Of a stretch of 64,000 nucleotides of DNA, positions 6,793 through 41,451 are shown piece after piece (position 1 is the stretch's first letter; every line of letters begins with the position of its first letter). The DNA lies in the IMG/VR virus record IMGVR_UViG_3300036790_000198, positions 3,426 to 67,425 of that record. One strand, written 5' to 3'. Under the pieces are notes generated by a model. It saw only the letters and a program-made list of their open reading frames with translations, did no database searches and was not told where the DNA came from. Position numbers and translations under genes: made by a program. The stretch is from a virus.

Positions 6793-7842
6793 GTGGGCTC
6801 GGAGTGGGTTATGGTGGGAATAAGAAGAATTCCGTCTCTAGACGGTGCGCGCGCGCTGTCCATAGCTCTCGTCATTACAGGACACGCCAATTGGAACAAG
6901 GTGTATCCCATTATCTGGCGCTTCGAATATTGGAATCTCGGCGTGCGTATCTTCTTCGTGATCTCTGGATTTCTGATCACGACTTTGCTGCTTGAGGAGT
7001 ACAAGCGCACTGGACGTGTCAGCCTCCCGCAATTCTACGTGCGCCGGGCATTCCGTATTCTGCCTGCAGCCTATGTCTACGTAGCAGTCATTGTTGCCCT
7101 GATTCCGCTAGGCGTGCGCATGGAATACGGCGATGTTCTGCCCGTCGTTTTCTACTATGCGAACTATGTCGGGCATCATGGGATGTCGGACGTTGGCCAA
7201 TTTTGGTCTCTTTCGGTCGAGGAGCAGTTCTATTTCCTCTGGCCCGCAGCGCTGGCGTTTCTCGGCATTCGTCGCGGTCTCTACGGCTGCTTGGCGCTAC
7301 TTATCCTGGCCCCGGCATTTCGGTTGATATCTAGTGTAGGACTATTACCGCCAACTCCCGGTTCTTTCGAGACGGTTTGCGATGCACTGGCGACCGGATG
7401 CCTTCTCGCCATGCTCCGCGATGAACTCTGGAGCTTGAGCCTGTATCGCAGACTCATCGAAGGACCTGGCGCGCTGATAGTGGCGCTGAGCGGCATCATT
7501 CTGTCGTGCCGAGGCATCCCAACTCAGATTATCAGTGTCGCCGGTATTCCGATTCTCAACATGGGGGTAGCGATGCTGCTCGATCGCTACATGCGGATGC
7601 CACAGACCGTGACCGGACGTATATTGAATCTGGCCCCAATAGTGTGGATAGGAACAGTTAGCTATTCGCTTTATCTGTGGCAGCAACCTTGGATGTTCAG
7701 CAGGCTGCCCATGGTGATCAGAATCTCGGGCGCGTTCGTATGCGCAGCTCTTTCCTTATATCTAGTCGAGAAGCCAATGCTGCGGATGCGAAGAAGACTC
7801 CACGCCAGGTCTCAGTTGACCCCAATGCTGCCATCGGTATGA
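6793..7842 (+). CDS. Membrane O-acyltransferase (Acyl_transf_3 / OafA-like), lysogenic-conversion moron
   Basis: RIPSLDGARA, FFVISGFLIT, FYVRRAFRILP, WSLSVEEQFY, SYSLYLWQ, VEKP; multiple TM helices; start may be ATG 6811. Confidence 0.92.
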   Translation: MGSEWVMVGIRRIPSLDGARALSIALVITGHANWNKVYPIIWRFEYWNLGVRIFFVISGFLITTLLLEEYKRTGRVSLPQFYVRRAFRILPAAYVYVAVIVALIPLGVRMEYGDVLPVVFYYANYVGHHGMSDVGQFWSLSVEEQFYFLWPAALAFLGIRRGLYGCLALLILAPAFRLISSVGLLPPTPGSFETVCDALATGCLLAMLRDELWSLSLYRRLIEGPGALIVALSGIILSCRGIPTQIISVAGIPILNMGVAMLLDRYMRMPQTVTGRILNLAPIVWIGTVSYSLYLWQQPWMFSRLPMVIRISGAFVCAALSLYLVEKPMLRMRRRLHARSQLTPMLPSV

Positions 7843-8621
7843 AGGTAGCTTTTGGTCGAGCAATCCGGAGTGCCTAGCGTGCCGTTCGTCAGGCGGTAAG
7901 TCCCGCTGCTGCCATTGGGAATGCTGATCGCGCCTGCCGAGGTGATGCCCGAATGAGTGCATCCAGAAAGCGGCAAGAATGCAGCTACTACTGAAGCTGA
8001 GCTATTGGCGCTGCTTGAGGTCACCCCGCCGCTGATAGATGAGCCGGTCACGACAGACGCCCAAGTAGCCGTAGGGCCATTTGTGTTATACGAGTCCTGC
8101 TGCACAAAACTGTTGGTGAATGCCGAATAGGTTAACCCAGTACCGGCTTGGCTCACGCCAAATATAACTAGATCACTCGCGGCGGGACTGATTGAGGCGG
8201 TGGTAATCGATGTGTTGGCATGTGCGGCGATCGCTGAGACCGTATCGCATGCGCCGGTACCGCTCCACTCACTGATGAACAAGGTGAGGTTAGAGGTTGC
8301 CGACATTGTGACGGTAACCGTATGGCTGCCTCCTGAAGCCGCTTGAATGTAGTAGATACCAATCCCTGGATTATTAGTTCCGCTATACGCAGCGCAGGCG
8401 ACTACTGAATTTAAATTGTCGGTGATCGAACTCAGCGTCGTATTGTTGTTCGCATCAACCTGGATAATCAGGGTGTCATTGGCGGTGACGCTACTGACGG
8501 GTGAAATGGCGCAGCTCGTTGCAGAGGCGCAATAATTCTTTGTGTTCTGGATTTTTGCCGGAGTGGCGAATGCGAGTCCGCCCGCCAGCAGAATCAGGAG
8601 TGCGACTAGGATTTTCTTCAC
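7812..8621 (-). CDS. Exported Ser/Thr-rich beta protein with Sec signal peptide
   Basis: MKKILVALLILLAGGLAFA|TP signal; domain resembles N-terminus of 27455-29521. Confidence 0.8.
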   Translation of the reverse strand: MKKILVALLILLAGGLAFATPAKIQNTKNYCASATSCAISPVSSVTANDTLIIQVDANNNTTLSSITDNLNSVVACAAYSGTNNPGIGIYYIQAASGGSHTVTVTMSATSNLTLFISEWSGTGACDTVSAIAAHANTSITTASISPAASDLVIFGVSQAGTGLTYSAFTNSFVQQDSYNTNGPTATWASVVTGSSISGGVTSSSANSSASVVAAFLPLSGCTHSGITSAGAISIPNGSSGTYRLTNGTLGTPDCSTKSYLHTDGSIGVN

Positions 8622-10588
8622 TGAATTTGCGCTCCTGCCTTACCTAAATAACCACTAGCGCACGCGCCGGTCAAAAGATTGCTGCCATTGAAGATCCCGC
8701 CAGCCGCTTGGCACACGCCATCAGAAGTTGGCGTGGCCGAGCTAACGTTGCTCGGGAAAGTCCCTCCTACCCAACCGCTGCCGCTGTTGAAGCTGATTGC
8801 CTGCGTCAATCCGGAGCCGAATTGTACTGCATTGGAACTGAACCAGAATGGGCCGTTGCCGGTAGTGCTCGTTTGGCTTACGCCCTGACCAGTGCCGACC
8901 ACCGAATTGCGATAGACGAAAACATTGGTTGTCGTTTCTTGGGATTCATTGTAGGCCATTCCGGGGGTTGTCGGGTTGGCTCCAGTGCTGACAATAATAT
9001 TGTAACAATCCTCCATGTAGCTATTAGTGAGCCCATCGGCGACAAACCCTCCCTGCCAGAAGATGTAGTTTGACTCTCCACTGGAAAAATCATATCTGTC
9101 AGTCCAATAGGTGTCGTCCAGCTTCCGTCCGTAGGCCGATCCCCCGCCGGTCCCAGATCCCTCAAAAGTATCAAATTCGGCTATGCCATAGTTAGTTTTG
9201 AAGGCGTCGTATAATCCAATCCCTTGGAAGTTTCCGGGGCGATTCTGTTCATTGACTCCACGCAGGACGACATAAGAGCGCGTGATCGTGCTCCCGGGGT
9301 CCTCCAGATCAATGGTCGTAGAATTACCACTTCCGGTATTTGTCCCCGGATACGCATTGGGGATTGAGACATTGTCGTAAGTGAGACGCCCGTTGGAGTA
9401 GCCGTCCTCTAGGTAGCTGAAATTCGTTGTAGTTGGCGGATATCCAGTGGGGGTGCCAACTAGAGATATACCCTGAATGAAATTGTCACTTGCATCGTTG
9501 TAGAGGAACAGCGATTCGCCCTTGTCGGATACTGTGGCGGCAAGGTTGGTAATATCGATGCTCGGGGTATTCGGATCTCCCGGAAACCCTAAGATCGCGA
9601 TGGGATTATTCTTGCCGCTGAGCGTGATCCCTGGATGGGTGCCTTGGTCGTAATCCTCGTAGTTTGTGGCCGGGTTCAAGCCGCGCAGATATGCGATAGC
9701 TCCAGGATAAGTGGAGCAGCCACTAGGGAATGCGACGCAGCCGCTGCTGCCGTAGAGTTTCGAGAGTGAATTCCAAGGTGAGGTAACGGTCCCGGACCCG
9801 GTTGAATCGCAGCCCGAGCAGGTTGAATCGATGAATACGAAGCCAGCTTTGAGACTGCCGCTGACTGATTCTGTCGTCGATCCGGTGGCGGCATAAGCGA
9901 TTGTGTAGGTTCCGGCCCCTCCGGTGGTCCCGCTGACCTGAGCTGTGATCCAGTCATTGGCGGGGAGGTCGCCGCCTGATTCTGTGAGCACGGTCCCATA
10001 GGCGAGAGACCCTGCCGATACCGAATTGACTACAACGGTTGTCGTTCCGTTCAACGTTGCATTTGCAGTGGCCGTGCTCGTCGCATAGGAGGCGGCCGTG
10101 CTCAGGGTGAATGCGATGGTGGTCGATGCGAAATCTTGCCCGGTCACCAATACTGAAACAGTGCCCGTCCAGGCGCTAGTGATATTCCCTTGCGGAGTCC
10201 AGCAAAATTCGTCGTAGCCGGCCGCAAGCATCTGTGCTGGCGTGTCTCCCGGTATCCAATATGACTGAGCGATGTATGAACCCGGAGGTCCCGAGAGGAG
10301 CGTGAAGACGTAAGGGTACGCACCACCTTGCGCCTCGATAGGGATACAACCTTGGACAGAGTGCGTGCTGTCCCAGAAAAACCAGTGTTCCCGCGCGTAG
10401 CTCCTCGTCTCAGAGTCGGGACGCGGAAAGATCACGGTCATCGGTAGCTGCGCGGCTACCCAGTGACTCGCAGGGAGGAAGCCTGTCGGTAAGCCACCGG
10501 AGAATCCCAGACGCGGCGGGATCGCGCTCGCGGTGACCCATGCTATGAGCGCGAACGCTATGCCAGCGGCGCGAAGGAACTTCATCAT
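8618..10588 (-). CDS. Exported adhesin or beta-helix-like protein with Sec signal peptide
   Basis: MMKFLRAAGIAFALIAWVTASA|IP; Ig-like GGAYPYVF; FID...GSGT...PW motif preceding a probable beta-helix. Confidence 0.8.
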   Translation of the reverse strand: MMKFLRAAGIAFALIAWVTASAIPPRLGFSGGLPTGFLPASHWVAAQLPMTVIFPRPDSETRSYAREHWFFWDSTHSVQGCIPIEAQGGAYPYVFTLLSGPPGSYIAQSYWIPGDTPAQMLAAGYDEFCWTPQGNITSAWTGTVSVLVTGQDFASTTIAFTLSTAASYATSTATANATLNGTTTVVVNSVSAGSLAYGTVLTESGGDLPANDWITAQVSGTTGGAGTYTIAYAATGSTTESVSGSLKAGFVFIDSTCSGCDSTGSGTVTSPWNSLSKLYGSSGCVAFPSGCSTYPGAIAYLRGLNPATNYEDYDQGTHPGITLSGKNNPIAILGFPGDPNTPSIDITNLAATVSDKGESLFLYNDASDNFIQGISLVGTPTGYPPTTTNFSYLEDGYSNGRLTYDNVSIPNAYPGTNTGSGNSTTIDLEDPGSTITRSYVVLRGVNEQNRPGNFQGIGLYDAFKTNYGIAEFDTFEGSGTGGGSAYGRKLDDTYWTDRYDFSSGESNYIFWQGGFVADGLTNSYMEDCYNIIVSTGANPTTPGMAYNESQETTTNVFVYRNSVVGTGQGVSQTSTTGNGPFWFSSNAVQFGSGLTQAISFNSGSGWVGGTFPSNVSSATPTSDGVCQAAGGIFNGSNLLTGACASGYLGKAGAQIQ

Positions 10589-13500
10589 AGCGAGCGCGGA
10601 TGGCAGGCCCAGCTAATCCCATCCGTCCCGCCTGTGACAGCGGCGCCCGGTATCGGTATCGTCGCGGTGGTCGTCGTGTCCGCACTCGCGCCCCACTTCC
10701 CGAACCACGTCCCTGCGGCCTGCAGGGTCTCATCGTCCACCGAGCAGTCGAAGCCAAGCGGATCGGTGAAGCCCGTGGCTCCATTCATGGTGATCACGAT
10801 CGAGGTGCAGGGACCCGAGGCGAGATTGAACTTGCCGGCGAAGGGGCCGTTATTGACGCTCGTTGGCGTGCAGCCGGTGGCGACCATCGTCGCTGCCGTA
10901 TGGGCCGCGAGGTATGCCTGCATCTCAGACGGAATCGCGAGCGCCCGCAGTTGCTGGCCGACGGGGGTGTCCCAAGCGACGACATTCCAGGTATTAGTCG
11001 CGGTCTGCTGGATCTGGATGAAGCCGTACACCCCGCCCAGGGAATAGGTCTGAGTGGTCGATGAGCCGTAGGCCGCTGAGGTGAGCGTGACGCCGCTCCC
11101 TGAGCATCCCCCAGTACCGGCCGGGTCAAGGCTCGTGACGCCCGTGCTGACTTCCTGGACCGTCAGGAGCGTCCCGACGGGATAGGCCACGCTCGAATTC
11201 GGCGGTACGCAGACGATGTTCGATGAGGCGTTACCCATCGTCACGGAGATATTGGCGTCCCCGAGGACGAAGGTATAGGTCGTACCGGTCTGCGGATTCG
11301 ATGAGGCGGAGTTCAGGACGCCGATTTCCTGAGCCGGAGTGAGCCCGTTCGGCGCGCCGGTCGAGCCGGAATTATTGGCAAGCGTTGTATTGTTAGCGAT
11401 CGAGGGAGTACCACCGCTACACCCGCTTGTCGTCAACGCCCCTCCCGTACCATTGGGGCACACCGGAGAGGTGCCGGCAGTGAGGGCGGAATCGATGAGG
11501 CCAGCGAAAGTATTGGTGCCCGAGAAAGTCTGCGTGGCCGAGAGAGTGGGCAGGCTGACCGCGAGGGCGGTATTGAGATTGGCAAGAGTGGGGGTGGCGA
11601 GCCAAGTCCCTACGCCGCTTCCCAGGCCCGCGAGGCCGGAGATCGGGAGATTGGTGAGGTTTGCCGCGCTACCACTGGCAGGCGTCCCCAGGGCGCCTCC
11701 GTTGACCACAAAGGCCCCTGCACTGCCTACGTTCACCCCAAGGGCGGTCTCAACGCCGGTCCCGAATCCGGAGAGTCCGGTGAGCGGGATGGCAGAGAGG
11801 AAGTTCGCCGGGATCGTGAATGAGCTGCTGTAGCTCGTACCGTAGCTCGAGGAGCCGGTGTAATTTACGATGCCGGCGCCACCGGAGGGGTAGGTGGCAA
11901 GCGAAACCCCCAGGGCGGTATTGAGATTCGCAAGGGTCGGGGTGGTAAGCCAGGTCGGGATGCCGGTCCCGGGGGTAAGCGTCGCCAATGCGCCAAACGC
12001 AGTCCCGCCAGTCTTCGTGCAGGTAATGGCTCCCGCGCTTGTGAGTGCGCAGTCCCCTGACAACGTGACGGGCGCGTAGGCCGTGCCGCCGGAATTGCCG
12101 ACGGGGAGTTGTCCGGTGGTGGGTACGGTTGCAGAGCCTGTGCCCCCGCTCGTTGCGGCAAGCGTATTTGAGAGTGAGCCTGCGGAGCCGGTTGTATTTT
12201 GATTGAGTGTCGGGATATCCGCACTGACCAACGACCGCGGCGCGAGCGCCCCCGCCGAGCCATTGGGGCTCGCCAGCACCTCATTCGCCGGCTCCGAAGT
12301 GCCCGTCACGGTGAACGTGCCGGCGCCGGTGATCGGTGAGCCGCCGACGCTGAGCCATGGCGGCATCGTGAGCGCCACATTCGTAACCGTGCCCGATCCG
12401 GCTGGCGCCTGGCAGCTCCCGTCGCCACGGAGGTACGTCGAGCTATTGCAGGGGCCCGACCAAAGTCCAAGCACATCGCCAGAGGACGCGGCGCTATACG
12501 CACTGCCGGCATTGCCCTTCAAGATGCCGGTGACCGTGCCGGCCTCGCCAGACCCACCATAGGCCGGCGCCAGCACCGAGCCGTTCCAGACGCCGGAGGT
12601 GATGGTACCGACGGTCGCAAGTGCGGAAGCTGATGTGAGCGCATTCAGGATCGTCGGGATGTCAGCCGAGACGAGCGCGCGATATCCCGGGGTGCCGGAG
12701 GAGCCATTGGGGGAGACAAATACTTGGTTCGCGCTCTGAGATGCGAGCGAGACGGTGAAGCTACCGGCATCCGTGACCGGGGAGCCGGTGACGGTGAACA
12801 TCGACGGCATCGAGATCCCGACGCTCGTCACCGACCCGCCTCCACTGCCGCCGCCGGTCTGGCAGGTGCCATCAGCGCGCAGGAAAGTGGTTGAGTTACA
12901 GGGCCCCGACCAGAGGCTGATGATGGCCGATGAAGTCGCGGGCACGAAGCCGGCGCCAGTGCTCAAGGCAAGACCGGTAAAGGTCGGCACCAGAGTGATC
13001 ACCGGTGTCGTGGTGGGGCTTGAGACGGTGCCCGAGAGGCCATTCGCTGCGGCAACTGAGACTGTGGTGACAGTGCCGCCTCCGCCGCCCCCTCCACCCG
13101 CGCAATTCACCGTCTGATTGGGCCATGCGCCCGTAATCGTGCAATTGGCGCCGGCGATGAGGCCCGGGGTCTGCGTACCCGTACCGCCCGCGGCGATCGG
13201 CAACACGCCAAAGATCCCGCCATTGCCCGCGCCCGCGAGATTCACGGGCGGGATATCGGTCGCCACCAGAGCTCGCAACCCCACTGGCCCACTCGCCAGC
13301 GCCGGACTCGCCAGCACTTGGCCCGCTGGCTGTCCGCCCGCCGCGGTCACCCCGAGGATGCCAGCAGAGGTGATGGGGGAGCCCGAGACGGCGAGCCATG
13401 GGGGAAGCGTCAGCCCGACGCTCGTGACGGTGCCAAAGCCGCAGGGCTGCCAGAGGGCAGCCGTACCATTGTTTGAAAGGCAGGTACCATTCACCAGTGG

Positions 13501-13734
13501 CGGCAGAAGCTGAAGAAGGAAGCCGTTTGCGGCCAGGTACTGCGCAAGCTGAATGGGCTCAATATTGACAGCGACGCCAGCAGTGCTTTGCGCGGGGATG
13601 CGTTCACCACCGAGTACGGTAGCGATGGTCGGGAACACTCCGGGACCCGATCCGGGCCAGGTCTGGGCGGTGGCTGCGCAGGAAGTGAGCGCAAAGGAGG
13701 CCGCCGCCGCCAGTGTCAGGGCGAACTTTCGCAT
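10585..13734 (-). CDS. Long fibre-like repeat protein with signal peptide or lipobox
   Basis: MRKFALTLAAAASFALTSC (LTSC lipobox) or ATA|Q; repeated GTVTxVxL..GSPIT, GGTG and TYT..GD fibre motifs. Confidence 0.82.
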   Translation of the reverse strand: MRKFALTLAAAASFALTSCAATAQTWPGSGPGVFPTIATVLGGERIPAQSTAGVAVNIEPIQLAQYLAANGFLLQLLPPLVNGTCLSNNGTAALWQPCGFGTVTSVGLTLPPWLAVSGSPITSAGILGVTAAGGQPAGQVLASPALASGPVGLRALVATDIPPVNLAGAGNGGIFGVLPIAAGGTGTQTPGLIAGANCTITGAWPNQTVNCAGGGGGGGGTVTTVSVAAANGLSGTVSSPTTTPVITLVPTFTGLALSTGAGFVPATSSAIISLWSGPCNSTTFLRADGTCQTGGGSGGGSVTSVGISMPSMFTVTGSPVTDAGSFTVSLASQSANQVFVSPNGSSGTPGYRALVSADIPTILNALTSASALATVGTITSGVWNGSVLAPAYGGSGEAGTVTGILKGNAGSAYSAASSGDVLGLWSGPCNSSTYLRGDGSCQAPAGSGTVTNVALTMPPWLSVGGSPITGAGTFTVTGTSEPANEVLASPNGSAGALAPRSLVSADIPTLNQNTTGSAGSLSNTLAATSGGTGSATVPTTGQLPVGNSGGTAYAPVTLSGDCALTSAGAITCTKTGGTAFGALATLTPGTGIPTWLTTPTLANLNTALGVSLATYPSGGAGIVNYTGSSSYGTSYSSSFTIPANFLSAIPLTGLSGFGTGVETALGVNVGSAGAFVVNGGALGTPASGSAANLTNLPISGLAGLGSGVGTWLATPTLANLNTALAVSLPTLSATQTFSGTNTFAGLIDSALTAGTSPVCPNGTGGALTTSGCSGGTPSIANNTTLANNSGSTGAPNGLTPAQEIGVLNSASSNPQTGTTYTFVLGDANISVTMGNASSNIVCVPPNSSVAYPVGTLLTVQEVSTGVTSLDPAGTGGCSGSGVTLTSAAYGSSTTQTYSLGGVYGFIQIQQTATNTWNVVAWDTPVGQQLRALAIPSEMQAYLAAHTAATMVATGCTPTSVNNGPFAGKFNLASGPCTSIVITMNGATGFTDPLGFDCSVDDETLQAAGTWFGKWGASADTTTTATIPIPGAAVTGGTDGISWACHPRSL

Positions 13735-13753: not shown

Positions 13754-14359
13754 TTATTCGGTGAGAAGGCCGGCTGGTGTCGGGGCCTTGCGAGCGCCGA
13801 GTCCCCAATACATGCCGAGCACATCACCAGGATCGATGTTAGTGAACGGCACCAGCACGTCGTGGCCGAGGACGGCGCCCTTCCACATGATCCAACTACC
13901 GAGCGCCGAACAGAAAAAGTTCTGTGCGCGCTTCCAGGAGTTGTCGATCTGGTCGGTTACAAAATCCTCGATGCCGCGAAAATCGTATGGACGATTAAGA
14001 ACGGAGCGCGCCATCGCCTCAACTGCGCGAGCCTGTTCAGGCGTGCAGGGAATCTCGAGCCACAAACATTTTTCGCCCTTCAAGTACGAGATCGGGCGAA
14101 TTTGGACCCCGGCCGGTACGCCGCCGACAACATTCAGCCGCGCATCTATGACGTGCGTTCCACCAGGCAAGACGATGGCCACGCAATGCGCCCAGTCTGA
14201 CTTCGCGAGCCATCTGATCCACCAGGCGCCGAATCCCCCGCCCTTCGTCAGGCCGACGGTGATCACCGCTGTACGGGCTTCCTGGTGCGGTACAGACCCA
14301 GTCAGATCCGCGATCGTCTTCGCGACACTGCGGGGCTTGCGTTTGGTCGTGCGGATCAT
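13754..14359 (-). CDS. Permuted papain-like (NlpC/P60, YiiX-type) amidase
   Basis: His in WAHC precedes PYD and FFCS catalytic Cys. Confidence 0.75.
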   Translation of the reverse strand: MIRTTKRKPRSVAKTIADLTGSVPHQEARTAVITVGLTKGGGFGAWWIRWLAKSDWAHCVAIVLPGGTHVIDARLNVVGGVPAGVQIRPISYLKGEKCLWLEIPCTPEQARAVEAMARSVLNRPYDFRGIEDFVTDQIDNSWKRAQNFFCSALGSWIMWKGAVLGHDVLVPFTNIDPGDVLGMYWGLGARKAPTPAGLLTE

Positions 14360-15141
14360 GCGGCTTCCTGTGCCTCGACCTGCTGAACTGCAGCAAGCAT
14401 GGCATCGAGGCTAAAGCCGGCCGGCGAGGTCCCGCCAGCGCGAACGAATCCCGGATACACAGCCAAGTGAGCCTCGTCCAAAAACTGCGAGTTCATCACG
14501 AGCGGCCAGGCCACCGGCTGCAGCTTGCCCCACGTGACGATCCACGCGTAATCCCCGTCGTACTTGACGATCGGAACGTCATGCCCGCCGGCATTTGGAT
14601 CATTCGGATCTGCGGCCGTTTCCCACGGTTGCCCCGAGTCGAACTGCTGCTCCATCTGCTGGTCGACAATAATCCCCAAACGACACGCCCCGAATACCTG
14701 CACCGCCCAGCGAAGGTGCGCGGCATTCGTCGGGTCAACCGGTCCGGTCGCTGCGGACTTCTGTCCGCAGAGCCCGGTCGACATCATGTATTGCTCCATC
14801 GATGTCTCATCACATCCCTGGTCCGTCGCCGAATTTCCCGGCACGTATCCCCCGACCGCACTGTAGAGCGCCTGGATCTCATCCTTGGTTGGAATGACGA
14901 TGGCGCCAGCGTTGGCGCTGTGCACCATGACTTGATGCCCAGAGTCCTCGCAAACGCAGTCGCCCTCCGTATCGTTCCACCAGCAAATCCAGCCGTCCGG
15001 ACTCTGCGATGTGACCGCCGAAACATAGTCGTCACTTACGGTCGGCGGACTTCCAAGGGAAGCAAGCGCCTGATGCATGGCTAGCGCCAGGCGCATCGTC
15101 CTTCGCGTGTGGACTGCGGGGAGACGGCCGCGTTTGTACAT
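14356..15141 (-). CDS. Papain-like cysteine peptidase
   Basis: ND.EGDC...GGHDV..VKYD...IVTWG. Confidence 0.7.
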   Translation of the reverse strand: MYKRGRLPAVHTRRTMRLALAMHQALASLGSPPTVSDDYVSAVTSQSPDGWICWWNDTEGDCVCEDSGHQVMVHSANAGAIVIPTKDEIQALYSAVGGYVPGNSATDQGCDETSMEQYMMSTGLCGQKSAATGPVDPTNAAHLRWAVQVFGACRLGIIVDQQMEQQFDSGQPWETAADPNDPNAGGHDVPIVKYDGDYAWIVTWGKLQPVAWPLVMNSQFLDEAHLAVYPGFVRAGGTSPAGFSLDAMLAAVQQVEAQEAA

Positions 15142-15143
15142 GC

Positions 15144-15401
15144 TCACGACAGAGCGCTCGCGACGTAGGTGTACTCGCCGCCACTCGTATCCAGCCCGCA
15201 CGTTGTGGTGAACGTGTGCGGAGGCTGGTAGTACGGAATGGATGGCTGTACGTACGGCACCAAAACCGGCTGCGGCTGCACGTAGATCGGCGGGTATACG
15301 ATCTGCGGCGGTCGCGCCTCCAGTTCGCGAACCCGCCGCTCCAGCTCTCCGATGCGATCAATGAGATCCTCGGTTCCCTTGCGCAGACGTTTTGCGGCCA
15401 T
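15144..15401 (-). CDS. Hypothetical coiled-coil/Pro-rich protein
   Basis: RIGELERRVRELEARPP; tightly packed with neighbours. Confidence 0.6.
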   Translation of the reverse strand: MAAKRLRKGTEDLIDRIGELERRVRELEARPPQIVYPPIYVQPQPVLVPYVQPSIPYYQPPHTFTTTCGLDTSGGEYTYVASALS

Positions 15402-15403
15402 GG

Positions 15404-15787
15404 CTACTTCGTCGCCACGCTGTACTGCGTGATTGCAGCGCCGGCCGACGCCGAGATGCCAGCACCAGTATCGGTAGCGACCTGTTCCAATGTCGGAAGC
15501 CACGCGGCGGCGCCGGCCTGAATCTGGAGCCACGGCTGCGCGAGCGACCAGAGATTGGTGGCGAACTGCGCCATGGCGGCATCACTCAGCTTGGAGATTG
15601 CCGTCTGCACCTGAGCGCTGATCTCGGTGAAGTTGCCGGTGCCCACGGCTGAAAAGTACGCCCCGATGGAGGCGGCAGTCTGTGCGCGCGCCAGCTTGTC
15701 AGCGTTCGTCGTGCCTTTGCTGATCTCAACGGCAGTAGCTGCTTCGGCGATGAGATAGACGGGAGAGTTGGTAGCCATAACTGTCAT
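15404..15787 (-). CDS. Ala-rich hypothetical protein of the lysis region
   Basis: ATGA overlap with 15784-16047. Confidence 0.6.
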   Translation of the reverse strand: MTVMATNSPVYLIAEAATAVEISKGTTNADKLARAQTAASIGAYFSAVGTGNFTEISAQVQTAISKLSDAAMAQFATNLWSLAQPWLQIQAGAAAWLPTLEQVATDTGAGISASAGAAITQYSVATK

Positions 15788-16047
15788 GCCTTCGGTTGCG
15801 CCGGCTGAGCCGGCTGTGGAGGGTTTGAGGCCAGGACCGCCTTCGCCTGGACGTAGGTCTGCGCTGTCACGTGGCCCCGCCAATAGGTCAGTACGGCGAT
15901 GGCACCCAAGCAGCCCTTGGTGTATTTGTCGGGAATGAAGCCGCCCTCAGCGAGCACCGCTAAAGTGCCGCCGGTGACCGCGATGATGCGCGTCCAGCTA
16001 TTGTTGAGCGCGTCCCAAATATTGGTCGCGAAATCCCAGAAAGTCAT
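15784..16047 (-). CDS. Holin-like 2-TM membrane protein
   Basis: Two hydrophobic segments, 87 aa, in lysis cluster. Confidence 0.55.
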   Translation of the reverse strand: MTFWDFATNIWDALNNSWTRIIAVTGGTLAVLAEGGFIPDKYTKGCLGAIAVLTYWRGHVTAQTYVQAKAVLASNPPQPAQPAQPKA

Positions 16048-16505
16048 TGCGCCCCCGCCGTGACACCCGTCACGATAAGTGGAGTCTGTTGAGTGACGAT
16101 CGGTGGCGCCGATGCGACCACGTAGCTGATCTCGGCCGATACCGGCCCCGATACCCCGCCAGCGACAGCCGTCACTTCGATGACGACCGTAGCGCCGATG
16201 GTGTACCCCGGAAGCGTCACCCTCGTGCCCGTCACATTCTGTTCAAGCGCGGGTGAGCCCTCGGACCCCGGGCCGTTCGTGCCGATCGCAACGTTGTAGG
16301 TGACCGGATTTGAGCAGGTAACTGTGACCGTGCCGGCCGTACACTGCGTGACAGGATTCCAGCGCACGACGACATTGGCAGTGGTCGGCGTCTGCGCATG
16401 CGCCACCGACACGAGTAGCGCCGCGAGCGCCAGCAACGGCGCGTAGCGCTTCTTGACCACGATGTGCCCGCGAAGGATGAGCCAGCAGAATTTCAGGTAT
16501 TTCAT
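16044..16505 (-). CDS. Exported fibronectin-III-like protein
   Basis: KKRYAPLLALAALLVSVAHA|Q signal; V.W.P...Y.V...V.AV...G..S pattern. Confidence 0.65.
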   Translation of the reverse strand: MKYLKFCWLILRGHIVVKKRYAPLLALAALLVSVAHAQTPTTANVVVRWNPVTQCTAGTVTVTCSNPVTYNVAIGTNGPGSEGSPALEQNVTGTRVTLPGYTIGATVVIEVTAVAGGVSGPVSAEISYVVASAPPIVTQQTPLIVTGVTAGAQ

Positions 16506-16673
16506 GAATACATCCTCACCTGCATGAGTTTCCATCGCCCGCGGCGCTTACGTACCGCCTCATCGCTCAGCACCGGAGCCGCAGCCGGCGAGAGGATCTG
16601 CGGCAGTAGAGCGTGATGCGTTGCGCGCCACGCGAAGGCGATCGGGTCAATGAGGGGGGCTTTCTTTCGCACT

Positions 16674-17126
16674 TTAGATAGTCTGTTGAATGATGAGCGA
16701 GTGCGCCATGATGTTTCCAAGCAGCGCTCGCAGCTTCGTCATGGCGTCCTGCGACTCCAGGACCGCCGGCTCAAGACGCCCTGTTTTGGGATTGAGCAAC
16801 TCACCGAGCGATAAACCAACCAAAATGCAGCCCAGTGAGTCCGTCGTCCAGTTTCCAGGATGCATCTCTATCGCCGACCGGGCGCCTTCTGGCACAAGGC
16901 CGTGGCCGTAGACGCCAAGTGCCGGATTGTGTAAACGATAGACCAAGCCCTTCTCGGGCGACTCGTAGGCACTCAACTCGTATTCGCCCGCCGGCACGCA
17001 CGACTCATCAGCCGCGCCATCTAGCCACGGTAATTCCATCGTATGCATCGTCTCGCCGGCGACAAGAAGGGTGCCTTCCGTGTGGGCGCCATCCTGTAGG
17101 ATGCGCTGCAGCGTCAATAACATCAC
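16674..17126 (-). CDS. DUF5675-like putative peptidoglycan hydrolase (endolysin candidate)
   Basis: T.G.L, TMELPW, SCVPAGEY, IEMHPGN...SLGCILVG. Confidence 0.75.
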   Translation of the reverse strand: MMLLTLQRILQDGAHTEGTLLVAGETMHTMELPWLDGAADESCVPAGEYELSAYESPEKGLVYRLHNPALGVYGHGLVPEGARSAIEMHPGNWTTDSLGCILVGLSLGELLNPKTGRLEPAVLESQDAMTKLRALLGNIMAHSLIIQQTI

Positions 17127-17437
17127 TTGTCCTCTAACTTATCGACGCGCTCTTTCAACACCTCGACCGCGCGTATGTAAGGTTCGACCTGCTCGTGCTT
17201 CCATCCGCGTAGATCCAGAATGTCCTTCTCATTACGCACTACGCGTATCAATAGGCCAGTCTTCGTCACCGCATCTTCCATCTGATCAAGCCTCACGCCC
17301 AACCCCTTGCGCCATTCCTCGCTCGAGCGCTTCCACTCCCCGAATGCACCAAGGAAAAACTTCGATGATCCCCACCACGCGAGGATCGGGCTCGCAATGG
17401 CGACCGCAACCGCAACGATGGTAATCCACAGTTCCAT
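17123..17437 (-). CDS. Single-TM plus coiled-coil holin/antiholin-like protein
   Basis: N-terminal TM; directly upstream of endolysin candidate. Confidence 0.55.
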   Translation of the reverse strand: MELWITIVAVAVAIASPILAWWGSSKFFLGAFGEWKRSSEEWRKGLGVRLDQMEDAVTKTGLLIRVVRNEKDILDLRGWKHEQVEPYIRAVEVLKERVDKLEDK

Positions 17438-17779
17438 TCACTGACGTCCTCGGCGAGTGTTGATAATCTCGCGGCTCTTCAGCACCGCGATGTCAGAGCC
17501 GATGGAGCCTAATGCCGCCGCCATGGCGCCGCGATGCGATTCCGAGCGATCATCCTGGCGCTCAAGGTGTGCTTTCAGCTCATCGAGCGTGCCTTGGATT
17601 GATTTCTGGCGCACCTCGCACGATTCCTCGTGGGCATGGATTTGCGTGGCGTTGCGGGCCACGCGGCCCTCCAAATGCCGAAACCACGCAATTGCACCGG
17701 CCGCCTGTGTCACAAGAAAACCCGCGATGCCGGTGACGAGCCAGCGGATATAGGCATAGATGACAGTCGAGTCGTTCAC
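17438..17779 (-). CDS. Single-TM plus coiled-coil holin-like protein
   Basis: TM WLVTGIAGFLV...; GTGA overlap with the fibre gene. Confidence 0.55.
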   Translation of the reverse strand: MNDSTVIYAYIRWLVTGIAGFLVTQAAGAIAWFRHLEGRVARNATQIHAHEESCEVRQKSIQGTLDELKAHLERQDDRSESHRGAMAAALGSIGSDIAVLKSREIINTRRGRQ

Positions 17780-18864
17780 GCCGTTCGCCTCCACATCCTC
17801 ACCACCCGGTAAGGCTGCAGATTGTTGTGGGGCGAGGCAGGCCCTGTTCCATTCAACGCAGCGCCGCTCAGTGTGGTCGAGTTGACATACGGCGCGAGCG
17901 TGTTGTCGTAATCGGTACTCTCGGAGCCTATGTTGCCGTTGAGACTACCGAGGTTCTTATATTGCGTCGCCACCGGCGCCACGACGCTCGACTTTTCTAT
18001 GTAGTAGCAGTCCTGAAAGGCTAAGGGCGGGATCTGCTGCGCCACCAATGTGCAGGTGTCAGCGCCGCCAGTTTGTCCAGTCGTCGCGAAATTTGTATCG
18101 GAAGGATTACGCCCTACCAACACGACGCCTTGAACTTCAGTCCAAGTCTGCCAGGTGAACACGGCGCCCGGGCTCGTCGTGTCGCTCTCCCACATCACAT
18201 AGGCGCCGATCGGGTAGATGAGGTTGGTAATCGCCTGCTCGAGCCCTGTGATATTGGTCGGCAGTTCCGTGATCTGAAACCCAGTGCCGTCGTAGACGAA
18301 TGTCGCAATGCCGGTGGCAAGGAGCGCCCCGACCGCTGGTGCCGCCCCGCCAGGAAGGTAGGCCGAGAGTGCCCCGACACCATCATTGAATGTCACCGTT
18401 CCGGAGGTGTTCGTGTTGGCGATCTTGACCCGCAGCGGCGTGCCGACGCTGTGGGCGGTGAGCGCGGGCGTGAAGACGGCCGAGTAGGCATTGGCGCTAC
18501 CTGTGTCGGCCGCATAATTCCCCGCCTGCTGCTGCACATCCTCGGCCTGGGCGGCATCTGTCATTCCAAGTGCCGTCGGGAAGAGGTTTACGAAATCACC
18601 CGCACTCCAGGCAAGTGCGGTCGTACCTTCCTGGCCCCGGACTATCGTCGTGAAGGTATCGGTGCTGCGAGCCTTGCACGTGCAGGTCTCGTAGATGGAA
18701 GAGTTTCCATTCTTGACGAGCGTGAACTGGAACGAGTCTCCAGCACTGACTGGATTGGGGAATAGCGCGCCGCCGCCAGACACTACCGAGAGGCTCGTCG
18801 CGCTCGATGAGATCGAGGCGGCGAGCGTTGTCGAGGCATTGTTGGAATAGAGTTTGCGACCCAT
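17776..18864 (-). CDS. Tail fibre / collar-domain protein
   Basis: NNASTTLA, RGQEGT, YPIG...GQTGG...HNNLQPY..VRMWRRTA. Confidence 0.8.
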   Translation of the reverse strand: MGRKLYSNNASTTLAASISSSATSLSVVSGGGALFPNPVSAGDSFQFTLVKNGNSSIYETCTCKARSTDTFTTIVRGQEGTTALAWSAGDFVNLFPTALGMTDAAQAEDVQQQAGNYAADTGSANAYSAVFTPALTAHSVGTPLRVKIANTNTSGTVTFNDGVGALSAYLPGGAAPAVGALLATGIATFVYDGTGFQITELPTNITGLEQAITNLIYPIGAYVMWESDTTSPGAVFTWQTWTEVQGVVLVGRNPSDTNFATTGQTGGADTCTLVAQQIPPLAFQDCYYIEKSSVVAPVATQYKNLGSLNGNIGSESTDYDNTLAPYVNSTTLSGAALNGTGPASPHNNLQPYRVVRMWRRTA

Positions 18865-27153: not shown

Positions 27154-27206
27154 TTCACATGACCGTGTTGACGTTATGGCTTGTTCTGTGGTAAGGAATT
27201 CGACCC

Positions 27207-27458
27207 ATGCTGATCTACGCCATATTCCTCTGTATGCAGGGCGCGCAGTCATGCGAGCCGCAACCGGCATTCACCGACATTGACGGCTCTCAAACGCCGG
27301 CTATTTATGAGTCACTCGCGGACTGTCAAACTGCGGTGGCGCAGCGTGTCCCTGGCGGCGCCGTCAAGCCTGACAATGGGCGCTTCTACTGGGATACTTC
27401 AAAGAGCATCTGGTATGTCTGCCTTGCGCGCCACGCCGACACCTGGCAGCAGCCCTAG
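27207..27458 (+). CDS. Small Cys-containing envelope-type protein, antisense moron
   Basis: 83 aa, hydrophobic N-terminus, four Cys; opposite strand within the tail module. Confidence 0.6.
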   Translation: MLIYAIFLCMQGAQSCEPQPAFTDIDGSQTPAIYESLADCQTAVAQRVPGGAVKPDNGRFYWDTSKSIWYVCLARHADTWQQP

Positions 27459-29521
27459 TTGAGCCCTGCCACCCTGATAAGATCAAACAGCACGCGCGCG
27501 TACCTCACGCCGCCGCTTAGATCCACGATCTGAAACAGCGCCTCATGCGTCTCACGGTGTCGCGTGACGTTCACCATCGCGTTCTCACCCGAGGTGATAG
27601 CGAGGGTGAGTGAGACGGCGGGCGTCAGGCCCCTCCACGGCAGAAGCACAATGCGGCTCTCGACATCGATCAGGCTGTAATTCAACTTCGCCGGCAGCCA
27701 CGGCAGGCGCGTATCGTCATAGAACGCGGCCTCGATGATGCAGGTCGTGCGCTCCAGGTACTCAGAACGGCCAAAGCGGACCCTACCCTGCGGCTCGGCG
27801 ATGATGATCGCGTAGCCATAGGGCGACTCGACGGGCGGCGGCAGCGTTCCGGTGAGCGCGGCAATGCCGGTCGACGCCGAGACCGCGGCCATCGTGATCG
27901 TTCCTGGCACTAGGAGCGCGCCGCCCGCCATCCCGGCAGTGAGGCCGGCGCCCGAGAGTGAGATTTGGGCGGCGCCATTCGGCTGTACGCGGCCCGCCGA
28001 GTTCGTCTCGCCCAGGGCGCCCGTCGTCCCGGCGCCGGCGGTCTGCGCCCTCGCGACCGATACAGATGCGCCCTCGCCATGCATCACCCCGGCCGCCGCC
28101 ATCAAGACGCTGGCTACGGATGGGACGGAGCCAAAGACTGAGATCGATGCCGGGATGCCCTCTTGAGCCGCGCCGACTGAGGTGCTGGCTGCGGATACCT
28201 GCAACCCCCCGGCGCCGATCGTTGGGGCCGCTGCAGCGCTGCCAGAGGCTCCACGGACCGCGCTCGAGCCCGCCCCTTTGACCAAGACGCACGCCCAGGT
28301 CGCAGCCGTAGCGAGGATCCTCAGCGCGCCCATGGCGGTAAGCTGGATCATGGCGGCGGTCGACATGCCACCCAAGGCGCCAATCTGGTCCGTGACGGGC
28401 TGGATCGGCTGCTCGGTGCCTGCGGTCATGGAGACAGCGAGGAAGCCGGAAGCGACCGCAGCGATGGGAGCGACTTTCGCGGTGCTCACTGCGGCCCCGG
28501 GCGCGCTCACTTGATCTGTGACTGGCGGTGTCGGCTGCTCAGCGTTTGCGGTGAGAGAGACGCCGATAAAGCCCGTGGCATTGGGATTTACCGGAGCGGC
28601 GATACCGGTGGCGAGCGCGCCGCCAGTGACGGCAGGGGAGAATGCGCCCCCTAGAGGGATGGCCCCAGAACTGTCGGCGACGCCCAGTCCCCGCACGGCC
28701 GCAGGGGCGCCTGTTTGTACTTGACCGACGGCGAGACTCGCGCCTGATGCCACGGGCGAGGCGGTCCCCGGCATCGGCGCGCTACCACTGGTGGCTGCGG
28801 CACCCGCCATCGCCAGTGCGCCAGCGCCGGTGAGTGCGGCATCAGCGGCAGAGGCGGCGGCTCCAAATGAGGTCATCGCGCCGGGGCTGGCGGCTGGCGT
28901 CAGCAGCCACTGAATAACGACGAAACCGTCCGTTCCATCCGCTGAAGTGGTGTAGGCCGGAGTGATCGATCCGCCGCTACCGGCATAGCCACTCCAGCAG
29001 TAGGCCATGTCGAAGTCATCAGATCCGGTGCCGCTCCCCAGGTTGGTTCCGGAGGTTGTGATCGTGTCGGTGCCTGAACTGGCGTTGTAGCAAAACGACA
29101 GGAGCGTCGAGCCGGAAGGCACCGTGACTGCGGTGCCGATGATGGCATTGGCACCGGTCCCGGGAGCGCTTCGGTTCACTACGGTCGGAGCGCCTACGGA
29201 AGAGACGCCCGAGTAGTCGATGCCCTGAGCGACGAGCCCGTCTCCGGATGTGGCTGTGCACGTCGTCGTCTGCGAGCTGCCACTCGCGCTTAACAGGTAC
29301 CCGGTGGCGGTCTCGTCAGAAACTGGATCAGTCCACGGGAAGCTGCCGCCGGAGGTCGTATAAGTGCCCCCGGTGCCGCTGAATGTACAGACGACGTTGC
29401 TTGAGAAGTCGACCGAAACAAATATCAGCGTGTCACTGGCGGCACTTGGGGTAAAGGCCGGTGACGTGAGCGGCGAGTTGCCCGAGAACGCCGTGATCAG
29501 CTTTTGGAAGGTGATCGCCAT
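27455..29521 (-). CDS. Accessory fibre-like protein (beta domain, Ala/Gly stalk, C-terminal domain paralogous to 45093-45473)
   Basis: Composition and internal paralogy; no signal peptide. Confidence 0.75.
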   Translation of the reverse strand: MAITFQKLITAFSGNSPLTSPAFTPSAASDTLIFVSVDFSSNVVCTFSGTGGTYTTSGGSFPWTDPVSDETATGYLLSASGSSQTTTCTATSGDGLVAQGIDYSGVSSVGAPTVVNRSAPGTGANAIIGTAVTVPSGSTLLSFCYNASSGTDTITTSGTNLGSGTGSDDFDMAYCWSGYAGSGGSITPAYTTSADGTDGFVVIQWLLTPAASPGAMTSFGAAASAADAALTGAGALAMAGAAATSGSAPMPGTASPVASGASLAVGQVQTGAPAAVRGLGVADSSGAIPLGGAFSPAVTGGALATGIAAPVNPNATGFIGVSLTANAEQPTPPVTDQVSAPGAAVSTAKVAPIAAVASGFLAVSMTAGTEQPIQPVTDQIGALGGMSTAAMIQLTAMGALRILATAATWACVLVKGAGSSAVRGASGSAAAAPTIGAGGLQVSAASTSVGAAQEGIPASISVFGSVPSVASVLMAAAGVMHGEGASVSVARAQTAGAGTTGALGETNSAGRVQPNGAAQISLSGAGLTAGMAGGALLVPGTITMAAVSASTGIAALTGTLPPPVESPYGYAIIIAEPQGRVRFGRSEYLERTTCIIEAAFYDDTRLPWLPAKLNYSLIDVESRIVLLPWRGLTPAVSLTLAITSGENAMVNVTRHRETHEALFQIVDLSGGVRYARVLFDLIRVAGLN

Positions 29522-29522
29522 G

Positions 29523-31496
29523 CTACTGCACGGTCCAGTTCGTCACGCTCTGGACCGTGGAGTGGTTGTAGTCCGAGGCGCCAAAGCCTACGTAAGCGGC
29601 GCTCCCGTTGACCACCGTCGGAATGTTCACCGTCCAGCTAAAATTCTGAGTGGTCGAAGTGACGGTATCTTTCAGAGTCAGCGACAGCGTGGTCGTTGAA
29701 TTGTTGTAGGAGAGCGTCCCCTGCATCAAATGCCCGCTCGTGAGTGAAATGCCCGAGAGGCTCGTATCAGAGCCGTGCGGGACGGCGCCCCCCGTATACA
29801 TCCCTACGGTGCCGTTCCAGGCGTCGAACTTGACGCACAGGCTGGAGGGGATACCGGAATACCCAGCACAGGGAGCACTCTGCGAATAGTTCGGGAACCC
29901 GACGGCGTAAGGTCCTCCACCCCCGCTCATGCAGACGCCGGTCGAGGTATCGTCAGAGGCAGGGAGCGGATTGTTGATAATGAAGGTGAGCGCGTTTTGG
30001 CTCGGCGAGCCGGTCATCGAGAACTCGAACACAGTCGAGAGCGCGGTGATATCGACTGGCGCCAGATAGAAGGCGGTGCCGGTCTGCGACCCGCCGTCAC
30101 TTGAGCTCGGGGTGAGTTCGATATAACCCGAACCGTTCACGGTGGCGACGGCATTCGTTGCAATGCGCCCGGCGGAGCTGGCGAAGCCGCTCGGGTAATT
30201 GATCGTGGGGGTGCCGGATGACTGGATCTGGTAATCCGCCTGGGCTTGGAAACTATCAGTGAAGTTCGCCTGCACCGCTATCGCATTGACAATGGTGCTC
30301 GCGCTGACCGTAAACGAGCCGGTATAGAGCGTTGAGGCTTCGGTTGCCGGGCTGCCGTTGATCGTGTAATAGATCGATGCACCCGATGGGCCTGAGATCG
30401 TGATCATCTGGCCGCTCGAATATTGGCCTGCGGCGGGACTGATCGTCGGGGTAGCGAGGCGCGAGTTATACCCTGAATACTGCGCCCAGGACTTGCAGTA
30501 GACGTTGGCGGGGTTGATGACGCCGCCCGTCACCCCGAGGCGAGCAGTGCTCGCGCCAACAATCGTCGGAATGTCTACCGGCCATTCAAAGTACGCCTTA
30601 TTGCCCGTCCCCACGTCCGTGAAGACGACCGAGAGGATAGCGCCGTCGTAGACGATGTGGGCCGAGAATGTGTTGCCACTCTGCCCATAAAGCCCTTGCG
30701 GGGCCATATCCAAGGTCGCGGAAACGCCGTTATCGATGTAAGGAAGACAGTTGGCGTAAAGGCCTGCCATGGTGGGCGACACGCCGAAATTGCCCGCTCC
30801 TGTGCCCACGGGAGGCGTGGTATTGAACGCCACGCACACACTCGTCAGCGGCCCATAGCCCGCAGGATTCGTAGGGGGGGCATACTGGAAGTACCCCAAG
30901 CCATTGGAGTCGCCCTGCGCGACCGAACCCTTGACATCGTTCTGCATCACGAAGCAGAAGCCATAGCCGACGTTGGTCAGTGCATCGATCGTCGAGCCGG
31001 AGGCTATCGACAGGGAAGAACTGAGCGTGTAGGTGCCTGGTCCTCCGGTGCCGGTGCCAAAGGCCTTGACGTAGACTTCCTGTCCGCCAAAGTTCTGTAG
31101 CGTCGTGCCCACATAGATCGTCCCCGAGATCATGCTCGCGACCGTCATCGTCGTCCCTGAACTGCCTCCTACGAAAGAACACGTCCCATAGGGGCTGTCT
31201 CCAACTGAGAACGAGATGTCGGTTGTGAAGGAGGTGACGTCGTAGGTAGCGTGCGTGTACGCCTGGCCGGCATCGTGGATGCCGTCATTCGTCGTGACGA
31301 CGTAGAGATTATTGCCGCTATACCCGGTGCCAGCGTTGGTGGTGTCGATCGTTGCGGGCCGGGATGAGAAGTTGGCGTAATTGAAGATCGGTGTCGCGCC
31401 ACCCCCGCCACCGCTTCCTACGGCCGTGACAACTGCGCGACTAGCCGATACTCCTGAGAATGAGATCGCGCCAGCGCCGGTCAGTGGTGTGCCCAC
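29523..31496 (-). CDS. Carbohydrate-binding protein: two legume-lectin-like domains around a chitobiase/FN3-associated domain
   Basis: FTTDISF..., GF.F, VDIPTIVG..TA..GVTG and VNIPTVV..AYVGF; ATPTISPAAG.Y...IYYT.NGS...YT. Confidence 0.75.
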   Translation of the reverse strand: MGTPLTGAGAISFSGVSASRAVVTAVGSGGGGGATPIFNYANFSSRPATIDTTNAGTGYSGNNLYVVTTNDGIHDAGQAYTHATYDVTSFTTDISFSVGDSPYGTCSFVGGSSGTTMTVASMISGTIYVGTTLQNFGGQEVYVKAFGTGTGGPGTYTLSSSLSIASGSTIDALTNVGYGFCFVMQNDVKGSVAQGDSNGLGYFQYAPPTNPAGYGPLTSVCVAFNTTPPVGTGAGNFGVSPTMAGLYANCLPYIDNGVSATLDMAPQGLYGQSGNTFSAHIVYDGAILSVVFTDVGTGNKAYFEWPVDIPTIVGASTARLGVTGGVINPANVYCKSWAQYSGYNSRLATPTISPAAGQYSSGQMITISGPSGASIYYTINGSPATEASTLYTGSFTVSASTIVNAIAVQANFTDSFQAQADYQIQSSGTPTINYPSGFASSAGRIATNAVATVNGSGYIELTPSSSDGGSQTGTAFYLAPVDITALSTVFEFSMTGSPSQNALTFIINNPLPASDDTSTGVCMSGGGGPYAVGFPNYSQSAPCAGYSGIPSSLCVKFDAWNGTVGMYTGGAVPHGSDTSLSGISLTSGHLMQGTLSYNNSTTTLSLTLKDTVTSTTQNFSWTVNIPTVVNGSAAYVGFGASDYNHSTVQSVTNWTVQ

Positions 31497-41363: not shown

Positions 41364-41451
41364 GGTCAGTTGACTCCGAAAAATGCGGCAACGCCGCTGT
41401 AAGGGCGCACGCCGCATTGGTGTGCACGCCGGGGAAAGGAGAGAAACTTGA

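Follow-up and report, generated by a model that had tools for sequence, protein, structure and literature searches.

A trio of coupled late genes with export-type leaders, two of them fibre- or minor-tail-like, in a tailed phage contig from soil

Three consecutive minus-strand open reading frames (ORFs) stand at the end of the late operon of a tailed phage recorded as IMGVR_UViG_3300036790_000198 in IMG/VR, and each of them begins with a leader of the Sec export type. The window, by which the whole stretch of 64,000 nucleotides (nt) analysed here is meant, comprises bases 3426-67425 of a single 67,425-bp contig in which a terminal repeat is absent; positions given below are those of the window unless a locus is named. 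The ORFs encode proteins of 1049 amino acids (aa; 10585..13734), 656 aa (8618..10588) and 269 aa (7812..8621) and were found as the first-pass annotation, made from the letters of the window alone, had claimed. It is probable that this trio forms a cassette: accessory proteins of receptor-binding type, produced together with the late genes, exported by Sec and acting after lysis. The precursors would cross the inner membrane via Sec and would be cleaved by signal peptidase I (SPase I) after an A-x-A motif, at A23, A22 and A19 of the 1049-, 656- and 269-aa proteins respectively. The mature proteins would fold in the oxidising periplasm, where paired cysteines (Cys) would become disulfides, and lysis by the phage would free them to act outside the cell on surface glycans or receptors. 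The proposed translational coupling at the late operon end is borne out by the junctions: the stop codon (TAA) of the preceding 201-aa gene is followed by a 19-nt gap and then by the 1049-aa gene, with AGGA 7 nt ahead of its ATG, the 1049/656 junction is an ATGA overlap, and the 656/269 junction is a GTGA overlap with AGGAG upstream of the 269-aa start.

A Sec/SPase I leader was defined by a positive n-region, an uncharged hydrophobic h-region some 8-15 residues long and small amino acids at -3 and -1, and leaders were scored by our own crude rule and not by SignalP. All three leaders fit this definition: each opens with two basic residues and continues with an uncharged hydrophobic core of 12-13 residues and an A-x-A. 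They occupy residues 1-23 of the 1049-aa protein (nt 13666-13734, minus strand; MRK-FALTLAAAASFAL-TSCAATA/Q, where the slash marks the predicted SPase I site ATA/Q), residues 1-22 of the 656-aa protein (nt 10523-10588, minus strand; MMKFLR-AAGIAFALIAWV-TASA/I, predicted site ASA/I) and residues 1-19 of the 269-aa protein (nt 8565-8621, minus strand; MKK-ILVALLILLAGGL-AFA/T, predicted site AFA/T). The crude rule was positive for 7 of 97 contig ORFs, which are the trio and four unconvincing cases, on a background of 26/484 among all contig ORFs of at least 50 aa. Leaders are present in all ten of the top ten relatives of the 1049-aa protein; rule-positive proteins make up 56 of the 120 relatives listed for it and 107 of the 150 listed for the 269-aa protein. 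They are also carried by the relatives P0002, P0004 and P0007 of the 656-aa protein and stand at the front of the fusion proteins P0003 and P0005. The leader sequence varies, and the n-h-c/AxA design is retained across dozens of relatives. Conservation in homologues had been proposed by the first-pass annotation as a check of its claim that all three proteins carry export signal peptides, and both this conservation and the link to Cys content described below speak for that claim. Judged by the crude rule, by conservation, by register and by the Cys link, the leaders are very probably functional export signals.

The register of the leaders is itself informative. Leaderless fibre relatives start at the ISQLP motif that follows the cleavage site of the leader-bearing ones, and the classical fibre start MADVKISQLP... 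recurs right after the predicted site in P0081, P0077, P0050, P0043 and P0054. Leaderless 269-like proteins likewise start at an LVQ motif, which in leader-bearing members follows the AxA, and in the AlphaFold2 (AF2) model of the 269-aa protein residues 2-12 form a detached, lower-confidence helix ahead of the fold. It could be supposed that the leaders are not export signals, the proteins being cytoplasmic virion fibres whose hydrophobic helices have another purpose or whose true starts lie downstream. This would agree with the contig's public gene call for the 656-aa gene (P0001, 537 aa), which begins at residue 120 and misses the leader and the conserved N-terminal region, with leader calls that rest on no dedicated predictor, and with the leaderless homologues known for all three bodies. 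Residues 34-119 of the 656-aa protein are, however, conserved in homologues, for which reason the long form is taken to be real and a start downstream of the leader, named in advance as a refutation, is not favoured for this gene. The Shine-Dalgarno sequence before the 1049-aa ATG, the start/stop overlaps at the 656 and 269 genes, the n-h-c/AxA design kept by varied leaders across dozens of relatives and the strong Cys coupling also argue against this explanation, which is regarded as very improbable.

Cysteine content goes with the leader. The 1049-aa protein has 1 Cys in its leader and 18 after it, and these 18 form 9 local pairs, as the claim of paired Cys had it. In the fibre family the median number of Cys is 12 in leader-bearing and 1 in leaderless proteins; Cys density is higher in the leader-bearing member in 45 of 50 disjoint nearest leader/leaderless pairs (sign test p 4e-9), and a W/F-S/T-G-x-C...C loop is found in 28/54 leader-bearing proteins vs 0/66 leaderless ones. 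The 269 family was assessed on 124 stand-alone proteins, of which the 11 leaderless ones starting at LVQ were kept as the leaderless set and the other 14 leaderless ones were dropped. Here the medians are 4 Cys (leader-bearing) and 1 Cys (leaderless), and a C-terminal C[TS]...PDC module is present in 69 of 99 leader-bearing and in none of the 11 leaderless proteins. The fibre family and the 269-aa family are unrelated, and the leader-Cys link is observed in both. Such coupling is expected of exported proteins, and it suggests mature proteins built for an oxidising compartment.

In the 1049-aa protein the leader is followed by a conserved motif at the N-terminus, by four units of the GTVTSV type and two LWSGxC...C loops, and by a distal domain. 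Proteins annotated as tail fibre or minor tail in 25 phage records of GenBank share its repeats and distal domain, and tblastn matches to the annotated genes cover 10-25% of the query; two proteins of these records were checked and both are leaderless. Relatives number 370 at E<=1e-3 (8000 candidates scored), and classical fibre N-termini are present among them. No Pfam, PHROG or NCBIfam match was obtained for the 1049-aa protein, and neither its N-terminal 100 aa nor the 656-aa and 269-aa proteins have a match in 50,697 GenBank phage records, a set in which no cultured phage carries them. The leader of this protein allows a second reading, in which it is a lipoprotein cut by signal peptidase II at LTS/C19 and anchored in a membrane, not soluble in the periplasm. 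The sequence L-T-S-C fits a relaxed lipobox, and P0020 and P0025, with a Cys near the end of the h-region, are compatible with it. P0019, which is 72% identical, is not: it has no lipobox-like context (ALLCAPF), yet it keeps the same A-x-A/QTWPG site as P0018 and P0020. Moreover, 18 Cys still form 9 local pairs when C19 is left out, and the lipoprotein reading is considered rather improbable.

For the 269-aa protein a confident AF2 model was obtained (mean predicted local distance difference test, pLDDT, 92.6; predicted TM score, pTM, 0.85), showing the detached N-terminal helix, a two-lobed beta-sandwich (aa 22-217) and a ~50-aa C-terminal Cys module (C221...C254). Foldseek against BFVD matched the model to predicted minor tail proteins from phages of Mycobacterium and Gordonia (prob 1.00, TMq 0.55-0.64, 74 matches at E<=1e-3); the PDB matches were generic, being jelly-rolls, receptor-binding protein heads and fibre tips (best Z 6.6). 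By predicted fold it is thus a minor-tail-protein-like beta-sandwich. Its relatives comprise 182 cluster representatives at E<=1e-3. The C-terminal module (aa 217-269, window 7812-7970, minus strand) is a conserved ~50-residue two-Cys unit with the consensus SCTHxGITSxGA..VPNGSSGSY..KNG.FGTPDCST, and it occurs also as stand-alone small proteins, P0206 (61 aa) and P0261 (95 aa).

The 656-aa protein has 7 relatives, in which its N-terminal 120 aa are conserved, and it gave no Pfam, NCBIfam or PHROG match. In two of the natural relatives (P0003 and P0005) a leader-bearing 269-like module is fused ahead of a 656-like body, from which it can be argued that the two proteins work together. The AF2 model built from the 7 sequences is unusable (pLDDT 34.7). 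Viral and metagenome profile scans with the 656-aa profile returned 0 loci and 1 locus, and a search of a large database with the same profile brought no new relatives beyond one match of 11% coverage. Designed armadillo repeats, met in the PDB profile search, match one ~35-residue stretch only and were set aside as a repeat artefact; the look-alikes in Atlas, He_PIG and a Pel9A/DUF1565 beta-helix (mostly Acidobacteriota), all score <0.9 and are leads only. A beta-helix in this protein found no Pfam match, and hhalign against the PF12708 protein of a related phage (locus L007, below) aligned the leaders only. Of the fibre-like bodies that had been ascribed to all three proteins, those of the 1049-aa protein (fibre repeats) and the 269-aa protein (minor-tail fold) are supported, and that of the 656-aa protein is without a supporting match.

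It had also been claimed that the two smaller proteins share domains with proteins of the virion module. One of these is a leaderless 688-aa protein (27455..29521, minus strand), whose N-terminal ~210 aa are weakly 269-like. BLASTP gives this likeness an E of 0.062, hhalign 0.0039 over 179 columns, and shuffling gives z 3.7 (0/300), or z 2.8 (6/300) when done locally, which lends the claim modest support. The other is a leaderless 657-aa lectin-like protein with Lectin_legB and CHB_HEX_C domains (29523..31496, minus strand), and here the segment supposedly shared with the 656-aa protein did not rise above chance: BLASTP E is 1.4, the hhalign match is weak (E 0.014 over 88 columns), and the shuffles (z 1.1-1.3; 41/300 and 30/300) are similar to controls. 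Two side observations concern the same proteins. In the 688-aa protein the weakly 269-like N-terminal sandwich is followed by a long Ala/Gly-rich linker and by 120 C-terminal aa; these have a homologue (E 3e-15) in a 144-aa gene that stands alone (L083 618-1052, minus strand) and in L007 sits directly upstream of the leader-bearing cluster. The 657-aa protein, of legume-lectin/chitobiase C-terminal type, lies between tail-tube-side genes and a tape-measure-like gene, an unusual location for a lectin.

The cassette recurs, in shifting positions, in other phages, and the same bodies are met with and without leaders; the first-pass annotation had missed both facts. A survey of fibre relatives kept 80 IMG/VR loci, 75 of which have a complete fibre ORF; 17 of the 75 are rule-positive for a leader, and 12 of these were accepted as convincing (L004, L022, L053, L069 and L080 were discounted). 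L007 is a true relative of the window phage (major capsid protein (MCP) 70% identical, portal 57%). Its run of Cys-rich genes with leaders, at least six in succession, is placed between terminase and portal and not at the operon end; one of their products, of 717 aa, has a PF12708, pectate-lyase-like beta-helix domain. The operon of L044 closes with genes for a fibre with a leader, a lectin protein and a 269-like protein, beyond which the genes lie on the opposite strand. The leader-bearing 706-aa protein of this locus, which has lectin domains, is a full-length homologue of the leaderless 657-aa protein of the window (38% over 651 aa, E 4e-93). The leader-bearing fibre of L002 has two leaderless tail-fibre genes before it and a DUF5675 gene after it, and in L001 leaderless 656-like and 269-like proteins are part of the tail module. 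Within late operons, the behaviour of these genes is that of a mobile cassette. A viral scan with a second profile (A5) returned 0 loci, and no relative was found in two scans of genome contigs. As an observation in its own right, the largest leader-bearing run seen is that of L061 (5891-18047, plus strand), where a 2152-aa leader-bearing protein with 42 Cys is followed by leader-bearing genes of 716, 616, 135 and 415 aa.

This mobility can also be read differently. The trio, or the 656- and 269-aa proteins with a neighbouring acyltransferase, could be lysogenic-conversion cargo (morons) expressed from the prophage, remodelling or decorating the host surface as an adhesin, receptor mask or superinfection barrier and unrelated to virions. 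The neighbour in question is an Acyl_transf_3 / O-antigen-acetylase-like gene (6793..7842, plus strand; Pfam PF01757, E 6e-21; PHROG O-acetyltransferase / O-antigen acetylase), which is convergent to the operon-end trio and whose 3' end overlaps that of the 269-aa gene by 31 nt. The GC content at third codon positions (GC3) is 0.60-0.62 in three genes (656-aa 0.615, 269-aa 0.600, acyltransferase 0.620) vs 0.731 +/- 0.042 in 20 other window genes, and GC along the 656-aa gene drops from 0.60 to 0.51. These three genes are a low-GC3 island, which had likewise been missed. Conversion cargo is further favoured by a tyrosine integrase encoded just upstream of the window, on account of which the phage is taken to be temperate, by the variable position of the cassette among relatives and by the 269-like P0139, 51% identical to the 269-aa protein, on a contig of 448,948 bp. 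On the other side stand the 19-nt gap to the upstream late gene and the 4-nt overlaps inside the trio, the native-like GC3 of the 1049-aa gene (0.752), the L007 cluster inside the packaging/head operon and the mature N-termini that match those of leaderless fibres. No promoter-like site was seen upstream of the trio, and promoter/terminator matches were not enriched over shuffles with a consensus that may not fit the host. With these points taken together, conversion cargo is thought unlikely.

Several observations weigh against a cassette of exported proteins acting after lysis. The shifting location of the cluster between relatives is moron-like, and so is the atypical GC3 of two trio genes with a classic conversion-type acyltransferase alongside. 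Leaderless fibre and baseplate genes are already present in the window phage, hence the trio is unnecessary for a basic tail. The Cys rule is not universal, since L001 encodes a 656-like protein that has no leader and yet, with 8 Cys, resembles its relatives that have one, and in 5 of the 50 matched pairs the higher Cys density was in the leaderless partner. A redundancy control by N-terminal class was uninformative: single linkage joined 83 of 120 proteins via a shared repeat, and the others gave p 0.27; matched leader/leaderless pairs were used in place of these classes. Finally, we know of no mechanism for joining periplasmic proteins to tailed virions, and none was found in the literature searched.

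Because the same bodies occur with and without a leader, it is simplest to suppose that either route leads to one and the same extracellular use once the cell has lysed. Within the frame of export and action after lysis, three destinations may be distinguished. The proteins might dock as extra fibres onto cytoplasm-built virions after holin opening or burst, a serious candidate whose chance is put somewhat below even; they might be free glycan-binding or glycan-degrading factors released at lysis, which is possible and is put forward with more reserve; or they might reside in the envelope and mask or destroy receptors, which is doubtful, although the neighbouring acyltransferase and the composition island lend some weight to an envelope or lysogenic role. 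For a long fibre that is no enzyme and has retained a classical fibre N-terminus, docking onto virions seems to make most sense; for lectin or beta-helix partners, free release would make just as much. A glycan theme runs through the PF12708 beta-helix of L007, the lectin domains of L044 and the O-antigen-acetylase-like gene beside the trio. Tailed-phage virions, fibres included, are generally understood to be built in the cytoplasm. As a tentative proposal, assembly may take place in two compartments, accessory fibres and glycan-binding modules being exported, acquiring a disulfide-stabilised structure by oxidation in the periplasm and then docking onto cytoplasm-built particles at the holin breach or burst; leader-bearing and leaderless forms would in that case be alternative routes to the same virion place.

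The single public run that contains the sequence is a soil metagenome DNA run and probably represents the source sample, and no tRNA genes were found. From the large terminase (46067-47413), by way of portal, MCP-like, baseplate hub and wedge genes, as far as a fibre gene with a Gp10_C domain (17776-18864), the late genes form a one-direction block on the minus strand. The trio lies outside the baseplate/fibre part of this block, separated from that fibre gene by ~4 kb of small genes; placement of leader-bearing fibres in a tail block is seen in L002 and L001. The small genes that separate the trio from the tail fibre genes (13754..17794, minus strand) encode products of 201, 281, 159, 87 and 163 aa, a 150-aa DUF5675 protein (16674-17126, minus strand) and a 118-aa transmembrane (TM) protein, and they possibly form a lysis cassette. 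The DUF5675 protein is the only one of them that passes a curated cutoff, and in one preprint DUF5675 is grouped with C82 peptidase lysins. Family searches found no holin or spanin match among the small genes, and PDB sequence searches with the 201-aa, 281-aa and DUF5675 proteins gave no match or chance-level integrase matches. The earlier statement that the trio comes after lysis genes is therefore plausible and unproven: the DUF5675 protein and small TM proteins upstream are in its favour, the lack of a holin or spanin family match is not.

Other features of the window were noticed in passing. A phrog_6216-family protein (40551-42483, minus strand) is present as two overlapping ORFs of 343 aa and 353 aa, which match profile positions 4-289 and 303-544 respectively, and as one 612-aa ORF in L007 (15029-16867); the split could be a frameshift, a programmed shift or an assembly error. 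The tape-measure-like 580-aa protein (25528-27270, minus strand) has a lytic transglycosylase-type domain, its PHROG matches being lytic tail proteins and endolysins. An IS605-type TnpB-like gene (57588-58679, minus strand; OrfB_IS605 and Cas12f1-like_TNB domains) lies within the phage early region, and there are also a C-5 cytosine DNA methylase (831-2480, plus strand) and a T5orf172/MUG113-domain protein (53651-54205, minus strand).

Among the fibre-type proteins of uncultured phages, a sizeable share bears export signals together with Cys patterns suited to an oxidising compartment. If the proposed export and action after lysis are true, gene callers miss or mis-start some receptor-binding proteins, as with the 656-aa gene of this contig, host-range prediction from "tail fibre" genes must weigh the compartment, and the infectivity of phages could be affected by Dsb and Sec functions of the host. 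It would then be a matter of either a new virion maturation step or a new class of lysis-released phage factors.

In the literature searched, subscription journals and supplements aside, no tail-fibre-like protein of a tailed phage was found described as carrying a Sec leader. Tail fibres are well known, and so are phage proteins that are exported; their combination, the Cys coupling and the recurrence appear not to be in print. The suggestion of an undescribed exported appendage has accordingly held up as to export, for which leaders and Cys argue, and as to the lack of a prior description. Envelope-acting phage proteins with export signals include lambda Lom and Bor, T5 Llp, and T4 Sp and Imm, some of them encoded in or beside late or tail regions. 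These proteins are small, are not fibres and serve in exclusion or host fitness, in contrast to the trio, which reaches 1049 aa and is fibre-like and coupled to the late operon. The spanins Rz and Rz1 are late, periplasm-targeted phage proteins with functionally important periplasmic disulfides. They form a small pair of membrane-anchored protein and lipoprotein, to which the trio shows no likeness in size, architecture or sequence, and the idea that the trio might be spanins was dropped, as 269-1049 aa and fibre-like bodies do not fit a small i-spanin/o-spanin pair. In filamentous phages the receptor-binding protein pIII is exported by Sec, contains disulfide bonds and is added to the virion outside the cytoplasm; inoviruses, however, assemble at the membrane without lysis, whereas the window phage is a tailed one with terminase, portal and baseplate.

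Late or tail-like phage proteins that reach the outside of the cell are also represented by PblA/PblB and by XepA of PBSX, found on the host surface or in the lytic cassette. PblA and PblB of Streptococcus mitis phage SM1 are reportedly late/tail-like proteins of the host surface that have no Sec leaders and depend on lysis, and XepA is presumably without a Sec leader and lysis-dependent as well. The fold match of XepA to the 269-aa model is weak (Foldseek E 0.022, TM score 0.20; Z 4.4), and XepA appears in papers on non-classical secretion. A further comparison is with classical tail fibres and minor tail proteins. These differ in having no Sec-type leaders and neither the many paired Cys nor the Cys-loop inserts of the trio, which moreover lies apart from the baseplate/fibre block. 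Nevertheless, the 1049-aa protein shares their repeats and distal domain, the 269-aa fold is similar to that of predicted minor tail proteins, and the predicted mature N-termini of leader-bearing relatives match the starts of leaderless fibres.

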